Of a DNA stretch of 64,000 nt, positions 4,543 to 57,554 are shown one piece after another. The stretch comes from Octopus vulgaris. Lineage: Eukaryota. The first letter of the stretch is position 1. Each line of letters begins with the position of its first letter. The position numbers were made by a program, and so were the translations under genes. The notes under the pieces were generated by a model. That model saw only the letters and a list, made by a program, of their open reading frames with translations, was not told where the DNA came from and did not search any database. The DNA is taken from NCBI GenBank assembly GCA_951406725.2, contig OX597817.1:48670001-48734000 (forward strand), read 5' to 3'.

Positions 4543-4912
4543 CTCTTTCTATCTGTGTGTAATATATATATGTATATATATATATGTATGTAATATATAT
4601 GTATATATAACATGTAATATATCATGTAATATATATTATATACACATGTATGTTTGTATGTGTGTATGTATGTATGCATGTATAATATATATGTATGTAT
4701 GTATATTTTATATATATATATACATATATATATACCATGTAATATATCATGCAATATATATCATATATACATGTATGCTTGTATGTATGTATGTATGTAT
4801 GTATGTATGTATGTATGTATGTATGTATGTATGTATGTATGTATGTATGCATGCATGTATGTATACATATATATGTGTGTGTGTAAAATACACACATGCA
4901 TATACATATGTA
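4430..4912. repeat. Compound microsatellite (CTAT)n/(CTTT)n/(TA)n/(TATG)n
   Basis: Direct reading. Confidence 0.9.
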
Positions 4913-5479
4913 CAGTCATGGGCAATGATTTTGGCAAATACCGTTTTTTTTTGTTATTTCGTATGAAATATCATGTGAATGTTAATAATTTTATATTATT
5001 TTAACCGGTTATCTGTTATCCAATAAGATTTGAAAGAAAAACTGCTGAAAACCAATAGATATTGCAAATAATCATCAATTTGCGGAATTGGTTATATTTC
5101 CTACAAGAAGTGGAAATCACATTCCTCTTCATGATTCCAAGTTGGAATCGCATGCAAGCTAATAATTAATAACCAGAACAATAGGTAAAGTTATATATGA
5201 TGTAATGAGCCTTTTGTAATTGAATGCTCTTTTGCTTTACACAAGCTTCAAATTTTCTTTTCTTTTATTGGAGGGATAATATTGGCACAAATAACAGAAA
5301 AGGCAAATAACGGCGGTGCATCAGCATGGCCGCGGCTCTGAGCTGAAACTAGAAACCCCCCCCCAAAAAAAACGTCAGTCATAATTTCTTTCGACCAAAA
5401 TGGCCTAACAACACGCGATATTGTTGTTAAAGGCATTGCATCTGAAAGAAATGTGTACAGGATTATAAAAACCTTTCAA

Positions 5480-27049: not shown

Positions 27050-27922
27050 TCTAGTTTTCACGTTCTTATTATGGTAATTTAAGACAATATAAATTTTTTC
27101 CCGATGTTGAAGTTTGATAGGCATTAAAAGGAATATTTTGTAATCTTCATAAAGTTCAATTAGCGCTTTCATACCTTCGAAGTAAGCATCAGATATCAAA
27201 ATGTTCTTCGCAGATGTAGGAAAATGACTGATTTCTTACTTTTTGTACCTCTTAGAAGGCTCCAACAATTCAAATTTTTGGAATACAGTTTTGACCAATC
27301 GGCATGCAACTTAAACGTCACGGCGAAAATCTGTCCAATTTTCTTTTTTTTGCTAATTATAGATCTACCAGTATGCGTGTATTGCCAGGTTCCACATCTA
27401 TTATCATTACACTTGGATACTGTGAATGTTTTATCCTGCTTGTTCATGTTTAACTTGCCTTTGTAAATACTTTCTTTAGGTTATGTGATTGCCTTTTGCT
27501 TAAGATAAGTGTTTGATTAGTTATTATGTTTTTTAAATTTTTCCTTTGTTTCATGATTGGCAAAATTGTTTTGATGACGTTAAAATGCTTTGGTGATGCA
27601 GATTGCGTGTTACTAGAAATGGTATTGTGTTCTGTTGATGGGTTCATCTTTCTCGAGTTGCCCTAAGTTGTTCTATAGGTGTGTCTTTTGCTTGTGGCAT
27701 GCTATTTTAAAAATTTAGAAGAGGATAATTTTGCTTGAGCAGAAACACTTTGAGTTCTATAAGTTGTATGTTCCTGGTATTTGGATCATCTACTATAGTA
27801 CAAATTTTCCTGGCTAGACAGTACGGGATGTTGTGTTTTGTGTGTGTTGCATGGCATGATTTGAAATTTAGGCACTGGTGTGTCTGTGTGTTTTTGTAAT
27901 AAATATCAGTTGTGAATGTGGT
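27050..27922 (-). pseudogene. Penelope-like element: RT thumb/linker toward the GIY-YIG domain, decayed
   Basis: TDIYYKKTQTHQCLNFKSCH..HTKHNIPYCLARKICTIV...LLKQNYP, ILSKRQSHNLKKVFTKA and KCNDNRCGT match PLE (Poseidon-type) motifs. Confidence 0.85.
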
Positions 27923-34254: not shown

Positions 34255-34624
34255 TTCTACTTGCATTTATTGTTGTTTGTTGGATTAATTAATCAAGTTC
34301 GTTTAAAACTGAGTGCTTCATTGATATTTGCCTGGATTGTTTAATCCATTTCTCTTATTATATGCTTTATTATATATACGTTTTAAAAAAGGGTCTTTAC
34401 TCATTGTTAGATAAGTTTTTATCTTTCTATTCGTACTTCGTTCTAGATTTTTGTGTCTGTATATCAGCAAGTCTATCACTCAAGTTAAAAATATATTTGA
34501 TGGCGTATGGGAAAACACATCCGATGTCGTGTTTTTCCATACGCCCTTAAATATAACAACAAAGAAAAACATTATTTACATCATTTACATTTGACGGATA
34601 TTTGTCCTCATCTTATTTGTTGTT

Positions 34625-34672
34625 AATACAACGTTTGGGCTGATATAATCTCCAGCATTCATCAGCTGTCTT
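34625..34672 (-). ncRNA. Decayed minimal hammerhead (GAAA mutated to CAAA)
   Basis: GACAG-CUGAUGA-AUGCUG..CAGCC-CAAA-CGU-U-GUAUU, with a palindromic ACGU stem III typical of PLE hammerheads. Confidence 0.55.
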
Positions 34673-34918
34673 GGGGAAATTTCGAACCTGGGTTCACATT
34701 CCTAAGGTATTTTTCGATGTTGTTGTTGTATATATATATATACCGCCACTATAAAAATGATTATACACTTCCGCAAGTATATCTACAGAGTCGTTGATAT
34801 TGACAAGAGCGTTAGTCGGCGGGAAACCATCGGTAACTTTCTTACCGGTCATTGGCTATAACCATTAATATACTGTCCGACTATAATAAAACATATCCGT
34901 TCTATTTCTATTTTAGAG

Positions 34919-49918: not shown

Positions 49919-50306
49919 TTAACTAGCAGTATCGTCCGGCGTTGCTCGGGTTTGTTTCGACCCTTTAGAATTGGAATTTTTGCAAAGTAAAACTTTTGCA
50001 TTATGTAGCTTGTTATTCTCTTTAAGTAAACATTTTTCTGGTTGAAATACACCGAAAAATGGCGACACACCAGTCAAAAAATCGTAAAAAATGGAGATTT
50101 TCATAGAAAAAAAAGGATCTTTTTGATGTAAATAAGTTTTGGTCTTAACGTGGTCCGATTCTACGGAATGAAGAGCAAGCCTTTTTCTATCATACTCTCA
50201 ATTTTGGTCAATTTGCGCCGCAGGGTCTCGGAGGAGATAGTGTTAGTTGAAGGCTACCAAACTTGCCATACACAGACAACTTCAGCTTAATATATAGAGA
50301 GAGATT
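49919..50306 (+). mobile_element. Helentron-associated non-autonomous element (HINE/DINE-like)
   Basis: TT-AACTAG followed by a CCGGCGTTGCTCGGG hairpin at one end; CAGACAACTTCAGCTTAATATATAGA..TT at the other. Confidence 0.6.
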
Positions 50307-50514
50307 TGATGAGCAGGAATTCCAACAAATGGCTGTTCATCGCTGCAAAACTCACCGTTATTACATATCTAACTGGATAGCGAATTGATTGCTAATTTCT
50401 TTTGTACAGTCTTTAGTTACATATATTAACATCTGCTGTGTTCCTATGGTGATTTGGAACAAATTAAAGCAAGTTTAAGAAAATATACTTTGCCTTTTTT
50501 TCTCTTTCTCTTTC

Positions 50515-50732
50515 TCTCTTTTACTTCTTTCAGTCATTTGACTGCGGCCATGCTGGAGCACCGCCTTTTAGTCAAGCAAATCGACCCCAGGACTTATTCT
50601 TTGTAAGCCTAGTACTTATTCTATCGGTCCCTTTTGACGAACCGTTAAGTTATGGGACGTAAACACACCAGCATCGGTTGTCAAGTGATGTTGGTGGGAC
50701 AAACATAGACAGACAAATATACACATACACAT

Positions 50733-50803
<71 letters not shown>

Positions 50804-50892
50804 CATATATAGGACGGGTTTCTTTCAGTTTGGTCGGCCCGAGGCTATAGCAGAAGAACTTGCCCAAGGCGCCACGCAGTGGGATTGAACCT
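50515..50892 (-). mobile_element. SINE family A, internally deleted
   Basis: Family motifs. Confidence 0.85.
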
Positions 50893-51304
50893 TATTTATA
50901 AACACTCATCATTTTCCATATCTGATTGAAATACAGTTTTTCTAATTTAGGTACAAAGCCAGCGATTTTCGAGAGGAATGATAATCGATTACATCGATCC
51001 TAGTGTCCGATTGATACTAATTTCATCGACTCTGAAGAATGAAAGGCAAATTTGAATTCAGAGCATAAAAATAAAATAACTGAAATTCTAATATGTAGCG
51101 CGAGACCAAACAGCGTCGGGAAGCAACGGAATTGAGGAGGTGAAGTTGTACACATTGAGACAGAAACTAAAAATGTTGCGGAGAGGATGAGTCGGGTGGC
51201 AGGTGTTATTGATTAAAGAAGTAGTCAAAGCACGACTGTAACCGTTCTATTTGCACTCGTGTGCACATGTGACCGACTGACTACGACAAAAAGGGTTATG
51301 GAAA

Positions 51305-51729
51305 AAGGCGGCGAGCTGGCAGAATCGATAGCACACCGGGCGAAATGCTTAGCGGTATTTTGTCTGCCGCTACGTCCTGAGTTCAAATTCCGCCGAGGTC
51401 GTCTTTGCCTTTCATCCTTTCGGGGTCGATAAATTAGGTACCAGTTACGCACTAGGGTCGACATAATCGACTTAATCCGTTTGTCTGTCCTTGTTTGACC
51501 TCTCTGTGTTTAGCCCCTTGTGGGTAGAAAAGAAATAGGTATTTCTTCTGCCATTACGTTCTAAGTTCAAATTCCGCCAAGGTCGACTTTGCCTTTCATC
51601 CTTTCGGGGTTGATTAAATAAGTACCAGTTATAGTCTGGGGTCGATATAATCGACTTAATCCGTTTGTCTGTCCTTGTTTGCTTGTTTGTCCTCTCTGTG
51701 TTTAGCCCCTTGTGGGTAGAAAAGAAATA
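51305..51729 (+). mobile_element. SINE family B, head plus two bodies, with TSD
   Basis: GGTTATGGAA flanks both sides (51294-51303 and 51730-51739). Confidence 0.9.
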
Positions 51730-52330
51730 GGTTATGGAAGAAGATATGCAAGGGATATCACATTTCAATGAAAGACAGATCTCGTTTCCTTCAAACAGAG
51801 AACTGAATAAATAAATGTATTATTCTTGGAAAAGAATTACCAAAGCAAATCATCTGATTTGAACATAACACGTTACTCCAATCACACACTTGGTTACAAA
51901 AAGATATAAGTGGGGATTGCTGTTCAAATATTCAATTAAAATTAAAGAATAAAGCCTAACAGAAAATGAAAAAAACCCAAATAAAAACAAAAAAACAGAA
52001 AGACACGCACACGCGCAAGTTTATTTTCATAATATAAGTAAACATAAGTTTCTAATGGATCCGGTGCACATGCCCTATATTTTGGGGGAAGATTGATAGA
52101 AAAAGCTGCAGAATGAGTTCCTTTCCAAACGCATGAGAATCACATTGGTATTAATGAAGCTTAACAAGTAACTTTATTTTCGACTACGACCCCTCCCCCT
52201 CGCCGACTTACATATAAAAATACACTGGAGGGTATGTGTAATTAGTATGTGAATGCTTACGTGCATTTATATGAATATTATTATAAGGATCTATTTGTCT
52301 ATCTATCTATTTATCTATCTATCTATCTGC

Positions 52331-52414
<84 letters not shown>

Positions 52415-52418
<4 letters not shown>

Positions 52419-53253
52419 TAAATATAAAATATAAATTACAAAATGTGACAAGAACGCAAAAACACACAAAGAGACGACACAAAAAAACAGATGGATCACT
52501 CGAAGCCTCTAATCTTCAGTCGGGAACCGGATCATCTTAGTAATTTCGGCTGTTTAATCTCGATATTACTCCGATCCGGCCAGCCCCAAGGAAAACCCAA
52601 GCCACAGGCATTGGATTTCTTGGAAAGAGGATCGAATGTATACGAAACAAAGACAGGATGCTACACGAATATAAATACAAGAAACAAAAATAGAAATAAA
52701 AAACAGAAATAAAAAACACGAATGGTGGACAGTACAAGGACTTATGACAATTTTTAACTTATCGTGGACAGTATAAGGACTTATGACAATTTTTAACTCA
52801 TCTTGGCTGGCGTATATGAAAAAAGCCTTTAACGGCAAAAACGAAAACAACGTTAACGTGGCCGCGGTCAAGCCGAAATGACCAGTTTGAACGCGGTCAC
52901 GTGAGAGCACGGAAGAAAGAGAAAGAAAAAGAAAGGCAGGGAGCAAGGAATTAAAGAGAGAGGGAAAGAAAGGGACGAATGCACCAGGGGAGAGAGAGAG
53001 AGAGAAGGGAGTAATAAGAGAGGGGAGAAGAAACAGGATTGGCATAGTAATAGAAATGACGGTGCAAATAAGGTGGGGGAAGAATCAGAGGCAAGAAAAG
53101 AGAAAGACACATACTATAGAGAGAGTGTGTATAAAGACGTCGTACAAGGTAAAAATGTGTGTATACATAGAAGATAGGGGAACGTTACGCCGCAATAATA
53201 TATGTATTGCTGTGCCAATCCTGTTTCTTCTCCCCTCTCTTATTACTCCCTTC

Positions 53254-53285
<32 letters not shown>

Positions 53286-53874
53286 CCCTGGTGCCTTCGT
53301 CCCTTTCTTTCCCTCCCTCTTTAATTCCTTGCTCCCTGCCTTTCTTTTTCTTTCTCTTTCTTCAGTGCTCTCACGTGACCGCGTTCAAACTAGTCATTTC
53401 GGCTTGAGCGCGGCCACGTTAACGTTGTTTTCGTTTTTGCCGTTAAAGGCTTTTTTCATATATGCCAGCCAAGATAAGTTAAAAATTGTCATAAGTTGTA
53501 AGACTTGTACTGTCCACCATTCGTGTTTTTTATTTCTGTTTTTTATTTCTATTTTTGTTTCTTGTATTTATATTCGTGTAGCATCCTGTCTTTGTTTCGT
53601 ATACATTCGATCCTTTTTCCAAGAAATCCAATGCCTGTGGCTTGGTTTTTCCTTGGGGCTGGCCGGATCGGAGTAATATCGAGATTAAACAGCCGAAATT
53701 ACTAAGATGATCCGGTTCCCGACTGAAGATTAGAGGCTTCGAGTGATCCATCTGTTTTTTTGTGTCGTCTCTTTGTGTGTTTTTGCGTTCTTGTCACATT
53801 TTGTAATTTATATTTTATATCTAATTTCTATACATATATTATTGCGGCGTAACGTACCCCTATCTTCTATGTAT

Positions 53875-53880
<6 letters not shown>
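52415..53880. mobile_element. ~790-bp repeat unit: full inverted copy (52415-53207, -) joined to a circularly permuted partial copy (53207-53880, +)
   Basis: The arms are near-identical reverse complements. The + copy runs through the unit end into the unit start (ATATATTATTGCGGCGTAACG). Microsatellites flank both sides. Confidence 0.85.
53663..53738 (+). ncRNA. Candidate rearranged (non-circularly permuted) hammerhead; second copy at 52504-52579 (-)
   Basis: AGUAAU-A-UCGAGA..AGCC-GAAA-UUACU..UCCCGA-CUGAAGAUUAGA-GGCU, with an outer helix CCGGAUC/GAUCCGG. Confidence 0.5.
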
Positions 53881-53936
<56 letters not shown>

Positions 53937-53941
53937 GTATG

Positions 53942-53983
<42 letters not shown>

Positions 53984-54011
53984 CATATATTTATATATAT
54001 ATATATATATA

Positions 54012-54054
<43 letters not shown>

Positions 54055-54273
54055 GTGGGCTGGTGCATAATTATTGCGGCTTTTTTTTTCAACAAATTTT
54101 TTCATATAACAAAAAGATCTTTAAATGATTGTTCCGGAGCATCTTCACCATCTAATTTAATTACTGCTTCCTATTTGCTTGGCTGATGGTCAGACCATCA
54201 TTTAAAGATGTTTTTGTTAAATATTGTTATTGTTTTTGTTGAATAAAAAAAGCCGCAATAATTATGCACCAAC

Positions 54274-54277
<4 letters not shown>
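54055..54277. mobile_element. Mariner-derived MITE
   Basis: TIRs (T/G)TGGG(T/C)TGGTGCATAATTATTGCGGCTTTTT of the Hsmar1/MADE1 type, flanked by TA. Confidence 0.85.
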
Positions 54278-54329
<52 letters not shown>

Positions 54330-54374
54330 ATAATTCATATATATATGTATATATATATGTATCATTAATTTATA

Positions 54375-55085
54375 TACCTTAAATCCTCGAGTATAATACG
54401 CAGGGAACTTTTAGGGGGCTGTACCTCTAAAAAAATCTATACCTTGTGTATAATACGCACCCCTTCACTAACTTGAGTCAAGGAGGTCTATATAACGTCC
54501 TTGGTTTGTGAAAATGTATACGGTAACGTCCTTTATTATTATTGTATATATAACATAATGCAAACGTGTAGCTTTTTTGTGCATTTTGTTTGCAGAAACT
54601 AAAGAAATAACAGTAATAACATCAGTGAAAAATAAATATTATGTAAATTGCCTTTACATATTTATCACTATCAGTTACAAAAGCAAAAATATTTATTCAA
54701 ATCCTTCAAATTCAACGTCACTTTCAGCATCAAATAACTGTTCTATTTGTTTCTTCGTAAACATGTCAGCATCATTGTAGTGTAAGTCTCCGTCATCGTC
54801 AGATTCATAGTCAAAATCAGAAGATTCACTTTCATTTATTTCATCTTTCCATACAACGTCGTCCTGAGTACCATCCAGTGCAGACGATATACAACATTGG
54901 ATAAAACTTATCACTATAATCTGAGGATCAAGTTCATTCCGTGCATACACGATCCATTTGCATATCAAAGTCAGGTCGGGAGCGCGAACCCTTCAACCTT
55001 TAGTGAACGACTTATTTCCAGTCAACATCCATTCAGTCCATAAATCACTTTATGACTTCATTGCTTTGGAATTTCAACATCAACA
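54375..55085 (-). mobile_element. 3' part of a pogo-like DNA transposon
   Basis: Terminus TACCTTAAATCCTCGAGTATAA. ORF 54693-54968 has WIVYARNEL...SFIQCCISSALDGTQDDVVW plus an acidic tail, typical of the pogo DDE_1 C-terminus. Confidence 0.8.
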
Positions 55086-55088
55086 ACA

Positions 55089-55123
<35 letters not shown>

Positions 55124-55236
55124 TGTATGTATGTATGTATGTATGTATGTATGTATGTATGTATGTATGTATGTATGTATGTATGTATGCATGGATGCAT
55201 GTATGAATGTATGTATGTATGTATTATGTATGTATG

Positions 55237-55270
<34 letters not shown>

Positions 55271-55364
55271 TGTATGTATGTATGTATGTATGTATGCATG
55301 TATGTATATGTGCAGATTTGTATGTTTTGTTTTATATATGTATTCTCATGCATATATTTACATA

Positions 55365-55608
55365 TTTAGACATCCTCATATATATTTAAATGTTAAACTT
55401 CGGAAAGTTTTACAGATTTTTACAGTTTCAGTGATGGATTGGATCTGTAGTCTTCGAAATAGGTCTCTCCTTTTTGGTTTTGAGAAGTCAAATTTCTCAA
55501 GGTTGGTATTTAGGTAGTGTGTTACATATCCCAGGCCCCCAATAATTACAGGTATAAACTTGAACTTGCAATCTGCATAGAATAACTGCAGATTTCGCAA
55601 TAGTTCAA
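55365..55608 (-). pseudogene. 3' fragment of an R4/NeSL-type (REL) non-LTR retrotransposon followed by a (CATA)n tract
   Basis: LRNLQLFYADCKFKFIPVIIGGLGYV...LQIQSITETVKICKTF. Confidence 0.7.
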
Positions 55609-55747
55609 CGTGTATGTATGTATGTATGTATGTATGTATGTATGTATGTATGTATGTATGTATGTATGTATGTATGCATGTATGTATGTATGTATGTATG
55701 TATGTATATAAGTATGTATGTGTGTATGTATGTATGTATGTTTATTT

Positions 55748-55781
<34 letters not shown>

Positions 55782-55894
55782 AAATAAACATACATACATA
55801 CATACACACATACATACTTATATACATACATACATACATGCATACATGCATACATACATACATACATACATACATACATACATACATACATACA

Positions 55895-55927
<33 letters not shown>

Positions 55928-55929
55928 TA

Positions 55930-56280
55930 TAGGCGCAGTGTTGCTGTGTGGTAAGAAGCTTGCTTCTCAACCACATGGTTCCGGATTCAGTCCCACTGCG
56001 TGGCACCTTGGGTAAGTGTCTTCTATTTTAGCCACGAGCCGACCAAAGTCTTGTGAGTGGATTTCGTAGACGGAAACTGAAAGAAGCCCGTTGTGTATAT
56101 TTATATGTATATATATTTGTTTAGCGATATTTCATCCGGTTTTACGTTTTGAATTCAATTTCCGCCGAGGTCGGCTTTGTCTTCCATCCTGTCGGGATCG
56201 ATATAATAAGCAACATTTGAGCACAGGAGCCGATGTAATCGATTTTATCCCTCCATCGAAATTTAAGCCCACATGTCAAA
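55930..56280 (+). mobile_element. Family A 5' part followed by a diverged family B body
   Basis: Family motifs. Confidence 0.75.
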
Positions 56281-56283
56281 GTA

Positions 56284-56849
56284 TTGAGTTGTCCGGAATG
56301 TTCGTGCCGATTTATAGTAGCTTACCTTTCGACTTATTTTAGAACATGGTTGAGTCCATAAAATAGTATTTGACTACACCTCCATTTAGAGCACAGTTTA
56401 AGCTATCTATTCGTGGAAGAAGGTTTATGTTCCTATAACCTGTGTTAATTTTGCAACCTTTTAAAATGGAAGATAAGAAAGTTCATTTTCGGCACTTGAT
56501 ACTATGGGAATCAGACAAAAATTGCTGCAGCTAGGCTGGGATGTGTTACCCCACCCTCCATATTCACCAGATATTGCTCCTTCGGATTTCCACTTATTTA
56601 GGTCTCTGCAGAATTGTCTTAATGGTAAAAATTTCAATTCCTTGGATGACGTAAAAAGATACCTTGATGAATTGCTTGCCATGAAACCACCTCAATTCTG
56701 GGAAGGGGATATTTTCAAGTTAAAGGAAAGATGGAGACGCATCGTGCAGCAAAATGGTTCATATTTGGTTGATTAAAAATATAATGGCAAGTATTTATTG
56801 AGCTTTTTCTTTCCTTTAAAAATCAGCACGAACTTTCCGGACAACCCAG
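56284..56849 (+). mobile_element. Internally deleted mariner element
   Basis: TIRs TTGAGTTGTCCGGAATGTTCGTGCCGATTT / AAATCAGCACGAACTTTCCGGACAACCCAG with TA flanks. N-terminus MEDKKVHFRH is joined to C-terminus LGWDVLPHPPYSPDIAPSDFHLF. Confidence 0.92.
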
Positions 56850-57554
56850 TAGAAAGAATTACGAGGGTATATGTCTACATGTATGTCTCTATGTTTGTGT
56901 GTATCCTATGTCGTTTATTATTTTAGTAGTTCTCAACTTCAAAGAAACACTCCGCTGCGTTTATGTATTTAACTTAAGATCATTAACATACCCAACTTAA
57001 GATCATTAACATATCCAACTCCGTTTTTTTAATTTCATAATAATATCTAAACCACTTTAAAAATCATATTAGATTTGACGAGCTTTAATATTAGAAAAGA
57101 AAAACGTTTGGAGCTTCCAGTAATCTGTGATTAATGCGACAAATAATATTGTTGGGAATTATATAATATTGTGGGGAATTATATATATTCAGCAATATTG
57201 GAGAGATGTGAAAACTCATCTTTCCAATATCCATTAAATTTATAACATTTAACTAAATTTAAACAATTTAATTAAAGCTAAATTTAATTAGAGTAAATTC
57301 ATGAATTCTAAATGCTTATTTCTGTATATAATTTGGCATGCATTTTAGCAATAATTCTAGACATTTCTTCAATTAAGTTTTAGAAATATGCAAAACACCT
57401 GAGCCCTATTTGTTGTGCCTGACTGTTAACAAAATATTAATATCGGTGATAATTAAGCAGAGTAAATTGCTTAACTTTTCCAAAAAAGATTCCTAGATTG
57501 TAATTATCTCTATTTCTTTAGAAAAGAATATTTCTAAGCAATATATATGGTAGC

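Follow-up and report, generated by a model that had tools for sequence, protein, structure and literature searches.

The window analysed here is a 64,000-nucleotide stretch of Octopus vulgaris DNA that carries two adjacent, oppositely oriented copies of a Penelope-like repeat (family A), each with a predicted ribozyme near the 3' end of the unit (Table 1). The arms of this inverted repeat agree at 99% over 52403-52738/53504-53839 and at 95% over 52770-53005/53270-53505. As the original prediction for this locus had noted, the segment 53663-53738 recurs unchanged, in reverse complement, at 52504-52579, and the differences between the two ribozyme copies map to 53615, where a U.G pair of stem IV becomes C-G, and to 53646. 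Family A copies have a fixed 3' end at (TA)n and variable 5' ends. Arranged head to tail, the units measure about 720-860 nt and are often accompanied by an inverted piece and a short tail; no coding ORF was found within the unit. Tandem units, an inverted 5'-truncated copy, a tail, microsatellite ends and the lack of an ORF make up the anatomy of a non-autonomous Penelope-like element (PLE) or non-LTR retrozyme, and the tandem, inverted and truncated arrangement has been described for PLEs (PMC8557442). A retrozyme would in addition carry one type I hammerhead per unit, whereas the strand order found here is S-G-C.

Table 1. Features of the predicted ribozyme and of the repeat copies that carry it, in window coordinates.
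Feature	Positions	Strand	Basis or remark
Whole predicted split-core hammerhead in S-G-C order (stems IV, V, II, III, I and core)	53604..53745	+	
Stem IV, 5' strand (predicted)	53604..53616	+	cofold; duplex -13.4 kcal/mol
Hairpin V (predicted), abuts G10.1	53619..53656	+	folding and alignment
Stem II, 5' strand GGCUG; G10.1 = 53657	53657..53661	+	pairing and covariation
Stem III extension, 5' strand CCGGAUC	53663..53669	+	pairs with GAUCCGG 53709-15
Stem III 5' strand and AUA triplet, AGUAAUA; U16.1 = 53677, N17 = 53678	53672..53678	+	predicted cut after 53678
Stem I strand 3' of the predicted cut, UCGAGA	53679..53684	+	
Stem II, 3' strand CAGCC; C11.1 = 53694	53690..53694	+	
GAAA core (53695-98, G12 = 53695) and stem III 3' strand UUACU (53699-703)	53695..53703	+	
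Stem III extension, 3' strand GAUCCGG	53709..53715	+	
Stem I partner strand UCCCGA	53717..53722	+	
CUGAAGA core; G5 = 53725, A9 = 53729	53723..53729	+	
Stem IV, 3' strand (predicted)	53732..53745	+	includes the GG that the original prediction assigned to stem II
Second predicted ribozyme copy	52497..52638	-	two differences over 153 nt
5'-truncated copy of the ORF-less unit with ~50-nt tail	53205..53881	+	ends at (CA)n/(TA)n
Inverted, approximately unit-length copy of the same ORF-less repeat	52403..53207	-	ends at (TA)n

The original prediction proposed, at 53663..53738, a hammerhead whose strands follow one another in an order that no circular permutation yields. All the strands it quoted lie where it placed them, and the pseudoknotted, non-circularly permuted order stands: the cleavage block (S) comes first, followed by the GAAA block (G) and the CUGANGA block (C). 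Stem III is the perfect 6-bp helix that had been described, together with its extension, and stem I pairs at five of six positions, the mismatch being A53682.C53719. The proposed span turned out to be part of a larger fold, with 59 nt left out at its 5' end and 7 nt at its 3' end.

The fold has the core features of a hammerhead, namely CUGANGA, GAAA, an NUH triplet, A15.1-U16.1 and, with the upstream strand of stem II, G10.1-C11.1, and the core is flanked by three covarying helices, I, II and III. It departs from the hammerhead definition at the A9-10.1 link, which should be direct or no more than 1-2 nt long (PMC10085705) and where stem IV and hairpin V are instead predicted to intervene. The sequence CUGAAGAUUAGA is located at 53723-34 and is followed by GGCU at 53735-38, an arrangement that had been read as a CUGANGA strand with a 5-nt insertion. 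In the aligned family A copies the core is a plain CUGANGA (53723-29) whose position 7 is A, U, C or G depending on the subfamily, so that the extra nucleotides lie after A9 and not within CUGANGA; the supposed insertion corresponds to a 2-nt linker and the start of stem IV. N7 and N17 are the core positions that vary within family A, and these are also the positions that the hammerhead consensus leaves free; N17 is C in the larger subfamily and A in the window copy. By analogy with known hammerheads, the cut would fall after 53678.

A descriptor of the S-G-C order that uses stems I and III only gave 111 matches in 895,387 fetched bases, against 0 in the reversed sequence, a count that is not a density because most loci came from searches for these motifs. 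Descriptor scanning also revealed other repeat families that have the S-G-C order with different stem sequences. In the family A alignment (23 rows, three of which have a replaced 5' end), the full model pairs 93.4% of 1,117 cells, which none of 500 shuffles reached and which compares with 26-48% for slid controls; two-sided changes occur in 14 of 49 pairs, including five in stem IV and two in hairpin V. These paired-cell counts come from related copies and are not counts of independent events. Over 11 family and subfamily representatives, pairing holds at 53/55 for stem I, 53/55 for stem II and 32/33 for stem III, with cross-family pairing at 47-52%, in a comparison where strand starts were picked by best pairing and stems I and III were partly selected by the search.

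The paired changes of family A recur in contigs of four runs that carry the labels of other organisms. Their common variants fall at 53674/53701 in stem III, at 53681/53720 in stem I, at 53678 (A to C) and at 53719, where the variant repairs the stem I mismatch. A pattern built on these variants has 3,578 exact matches in the octopus's own genome and a wider pattern 4,466, with a control count of 0 in both cases. Among the first 100 of the 4,466 matches, scored by eye, the stem III pair 16.4-15.4 is C-G in 79, U-A in 19, U.G in one and C.A in one; one of the stem I changes (CG to CA/TG) could stem from CpG decay. For stems I and III, covariation extends over thousands of copies. Chance complementarity within a repeat might be suspected from the shortness of the helices and from the lack of any Rfam hammerhead match, be it in 50000-57000 at E values up to 10, across the window or at six representative loci. 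However, Rfam covariance models cannot match a permuted strand order, so the absent match is expected, and given the descriptor counts and the covariation of the helices, we consider the likelihood of chance pairing to be next to negligible.

The same comparison of genomic copies that bears out stems I and III speaks against stem II as it was first drawn, with the downstream GGCU, for which no compensatory pair was seen. That drawing amounts to a plain type-SGC hammerhead with 5 nt looped out after A9. Over 15 family A rows, the downstream GGCU can pair in 56 of 60 cells (4 bp) with 0 two-sided changes, and G10.1 is lost, being A, in four of the rows; the upstream strand, which is longer, is paired in 75 of 75 cells and shows one compensatory U-A/C-G change. 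Among 82 distinct cores that were found without using stem II in the search, the upstream partner is the better one in 70, with two ties and 10 losses, mostly in cores that are 5'-truncated there or that are single-substitution copies. The duplex energies are -10.0 kcal/mol upstream and -6.2 kcal/mol for the downstream rival, and each of two family E representatives has one mismatch in stem II. The G-rich bases after A9 in families B and C can wobble-pair with the 3' strand of stem II, and the downstream pairing could represent an alternative conformer. Yet a pattern search for family A copies without a spacer after A9 returned 0 matches, and the GG in question is already used by the covarying stem IV. 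We therefore regard the looped-out type-SGC structure as very unlikely; judging from the alignments, the downstream 4-bp GGCU/AGCC pairing is possible on paper and is not the conserved one.

In the preferred fold with an upstream stem II, the bases after A9 are predicted to find their partner strand some 40-55 nt upstream of G10.1, forming stem IV and enclosing hairpin V. Stem IV of the window copy consists of 7 bp and 5 bp flanking a small internal loop, and the helix reaches up to 14 bp in sister subfamilies. When 62 nt of upstream sequence were considered, the mean interaction energy over 71 cores was -11.4 kcal/mol, versus -5.1 for shuffled sequences and -3.4 for distant partners; 57 of the cores beat the shuffle mean and 14 were no better, while at most one of 20 shuffles did as well in 46 cores (0 of 20 for the window copy). 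No signal was seen with 45 nt of upstream sequence, where 37 of 71 cores were better than shuffles. Within family A, 89.8% of the stem IV cells are paired, with two-sided changes in 5 of 14 pairs, and 91-92% of the hairpin V cells; stem IV shrinks to 4-5 bp in families B, C and D, where it mostly fails to exceed shuffles. Unconstrained folding of 53598-53750 forms stems IV, V and III, and the minimum-energy fold of the window copy also contains a rival pairing of 53656-58 with 53718-20, its z being only -1.9. We propose that stem IV would clamp both ends of the fold and that hairpin V would hold G10.1 beside A9, so that the usual core could form; the pseudoknotted stems I-III would then build a standard core and cut after 53678.

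A further suggestion in the original prediction was an inter-unit hammerhead. In such a dimer, strands of two copies, in tandem or in trans, would combine in ordinary circular order. Tandem units are indeed common, minimal PLE hammerheads have been proposed to act as dimers (PMC4209133), and a UUCGAA palindrome lies within stem IV of the larger subfamily. Such a dimer is not needed, because a single copy contains every strand; each copy moreover has a stem III that is long and stable, whereas helix III of those hammerheads is short and palindromic, stem IV and hairpin V are nested about a single copy, and the spacings between strands are fixed across the representatives. We find a dimeric arrangement highly improbable. 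If every unit of a tandem read-through transcript were cut once, monomers of 720-860 nt, perhaps circular, would be set free, which a PLE reverse transcriptase/GIY-YIG endonuclease acting in trans would reinsert as head-to-tail copies. Such a cycle, with cutting of multimeric RNA, has been proposed for PLE hammerheads (PMC4209133) and for non-LTR retrozymes (bioRxiv 10.64898/2026.07.22.740005). Among the listed holders of the sequence none is recorded as RNA. Four runs, only guessed to be RNA, hold family A contigs that include a head-to-tail joint, but contigs do not reveal transcript ends and tandem DNA yields the same joint.

The mismatched C53719 is fixed in the window's subfamily (38 of 38 rows, 32 distinct copies), whereas the larger subfamily has a paired U at this position. 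The stem I duplex of the window's subfamily reaches only -3.2 kcal/mol, and this subfamily may cleave more slowly than its sisters. A 121-nt query gave 1,935 candidates in the 2.80-Gb genome, and the 40 that were scored are 96-100% identical. This recent amplification despite a fixed mismatch would suit a fold that is conserved and non-catalytic, for example a hammerhead-derived 3'-end structure serving reverse transcriptase recognition or RNA-end protection, as would the lack of a tested precedent for a split core in the portions of the literature examined and the proliferation of Naiad elements despite absent canonical hammerheads (PMC8557442). On the other hand, family A, where the core was not fixed by the search patterns, keeps CUGANGA intact while N7 and N17 vary, which is the pattern expected under selection on catalysis, and G10.1-C11.1 and an NUH triplet are present in 11 of 11 representatives. 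Conservation of CUGANGA and GAAA cannot be counted across families, because the cross-family searches required both. A non-catalytic role thus appears unlikely to us. We put at roughly 0.75 the probability that 53604-53745 forms a hammerhead-type RNA fold, conserved and covarying, in the non-circular S-G-C order, with an upstream stem II and predicted helices IV and V replacing the A9-G10.1 link, that likely self-cleaves after A53678 in transcripts of a non-autonomous Penelope-like repeat, probably related to Naiads.

Naiad retrotransposons were reported by Craig 2021 to have no canonical hammerheads and only unexplained halves of the core, and the annotation 'HHR_half_core' includes Naiad_Ovul (PMC8557442). 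By eye, the sister family D (loci L129, L181 and L186-L190) agrees with the published 3' ends of Naiad_Obim and Naiad_Ovul, and these ends fold with the same wiring. In the supplement of that paper, 60 of 62 CTGATGA places were read, 25 of which are table rows of ordinary hammerheads; among the other 35, seven show the split-core wiring and two show type CSG by eye. The seven comprise three neighbouring entries, including Naiad_Aacu and Naiad_Anas, two more entries and two octopus entries. Three further CSG cases occur among 15 of the 23 CTGACGA places. The five consensus ends read by eye as CSG have an intact block C and belong to entries near Naiad_Hcon and Naiad-3_Nbra; type CSG is otherwise known from two metagenomic sequences only, according to PMC10085705.

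Family A resembles the Naiads described in PMC8557442 in its (TA)n targeting, its tandem and inverted copies and its short tail, and differs from them in that no ORF was found in it and no direct sequence link to a Naiad came to light. A tblastn search with a 781-aa PLE protein found only short fragments near the loci L008, L048 and L122, which may belong to other elements, and the GIY-YIG ORFs examined at 20 of 148 matches are of the C-terminal type or fragments. The searches turned up no ORF-bearing element joined to family A, so the case for a tie to Naiads is built on the shared wiring and the insertion anatomy, from which we consider the repeat to be probably Naiad-related. Separately, two loci contain intact 781-aa PLE ORFs with a C-terminal GIY-YIG domain (L161:2745-5087 and L162:2664-5006). 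Many matches have the same open length, and these ORFs therefore belong to a young family; the 500 nt after them hold short tandem repeats and no hammerhead core. A Penelope-like RT/thumb fragment at 27602-27910 (-) of the window is 44.7% identical to residues 481-583 of the L161 ORF.

Several other repeats were seen in the window and in the fetched loci. An abundant ordinary type I hammerhead repeat family has a copy at about 34580-34710 (-) of the window, in which the GAAA is mutated, and is also present in L023 and L083-L110. The pattern CGAAA-N14-30-CTGATGA occurs 28,646 versus 2,156 times, which is not a copy number, since about 44 of the first 100 matches listed belong, by eye, to this type I family, in which a CGAAA occurs incidentally. 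Further hammerhead-like repeats of type I, whose helix III is near-palindromic, were noted by eye at L028:2455-2545 and L006:2845-2895, and L006:1-1400, upstream of a family A dimer, consists of a tandem repeat with a period of about 740 nt that is very rich in AT. Family E (L122 (-) at about 4870-5050, L103 and L126) has a second GAAA...CUGACGA core about 78 nt downstream, with CUGAAGA upstream, and in L122 a short RT-like match follows the cores. A SINE-like repeat, about 110 nt long, occurs at 12 places of the window between 8027 and 56048 and is 70-81% identical there to L051:788-898; at 55611-55918 lies a microsatellite palindrome whose 154-nt arms are 98% complementary, with no spacer.

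Block C (stem I - CUGANGA - stem II) was assumed by Eckert 2023 (PMC10085705) to be uninterruptible, no insert longer than 1-2 nt being known at A9-10.1, and the search patterns used there demand CUGAUGAG or CUGAUGAUG directly before stem II; they would miss the octopus motif because in them stem II must directly follow the core. Since standard descriptors and covariance models pass over this motif, counts of ribozymes in invertebrate genomes are probably underestimates. The literature searched yielded no split-core hammerhead or Naiad ribozyme, and earlier extra-helix variants could still predate ours: the consulted sections of PMC3088659, PMC13725137, PMC10162972 and PMC6765202 describe no split-core form, although PMC13725137 mentions hammerhead variants with additional helices and cites Weinberg 2015 for them. 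In the portions examined, none of the hammerheads described as active carries helices between A9 and 10.1.

We lean, by somewhat better than even odds, towards a broader reading, in which the motif would be an active topology outside Eckert's six, a core-entered non-circular permutant with two helices replacing the A9-G10.1 bond. It would be the missing ribozyme of Naiads in several animal groups; octopus-like genomes would hold many thousands of copies, and there it would process both autonomous and non-autonomous transcripts. If this is true, the best-studied ribozyme core can be broken open at A9-G10.1 and take up two helices there, and the impossibility assumed in the 2023 permutation scheme is overturned. 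Non-circular permutants would move from rare metatranscriptome circles to high-copy genomic elements of animals, and the stated puzzle of why Naiads have just 'half cores' would be explained.

The closest relatives in genomic setting are the type I hammerheads of Penelope pLTRs and non-LTR retrozymes, which likewise lie in the terminal repeat of tandem, inverted, 5'-truncated units; non-LTR retrozymes, like family A, are ORF-less tandem monomers (PMC4209133, bioRxiv 10.64898/2026.07.22.740005). These type I hammerheads also tolerate an extra nucleotide between A9 and 10.1. However, they have the circular C-G-S order and a short palindromic helix III, and dimers are thought to be needed (PMC4209133), whereas the octopus motif has the S-G-C order, a long stem III and two extra helices.

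In strand order the relative is type SGC (HRIMA-1 and variants; PMC10085705), and the overlap with a known motif against which the original prediction had cautioned is thus real. Both have, from 5' to 3', the cleavage block, the GAAA block and CUGANGA, together with pseudoknotted stems I-III, the full core consensus and a short linker from stem I to the 3' strand of stem II. Block C is continuous in type SGC and interrupted in the octopus motif, where the 5' strand of stem II lies at the 5' end, stem IV and hairpin V being predicted between A9 and G10.1; an extra helix joining the distal ends of stems I and II is among the criteria for type SGC, and stems IV and V differ from it in position. 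Type SGC is found in metatranscriptomes only and its cleavage was validated in vitro, whereas the octopus motif is a high-copy animal genomic repeat known from its sequence and predicted fold. Non-circular permutation itself is therefore already known from type SGC, and what appears to be new here is the split-core wiring and its genomic setting.
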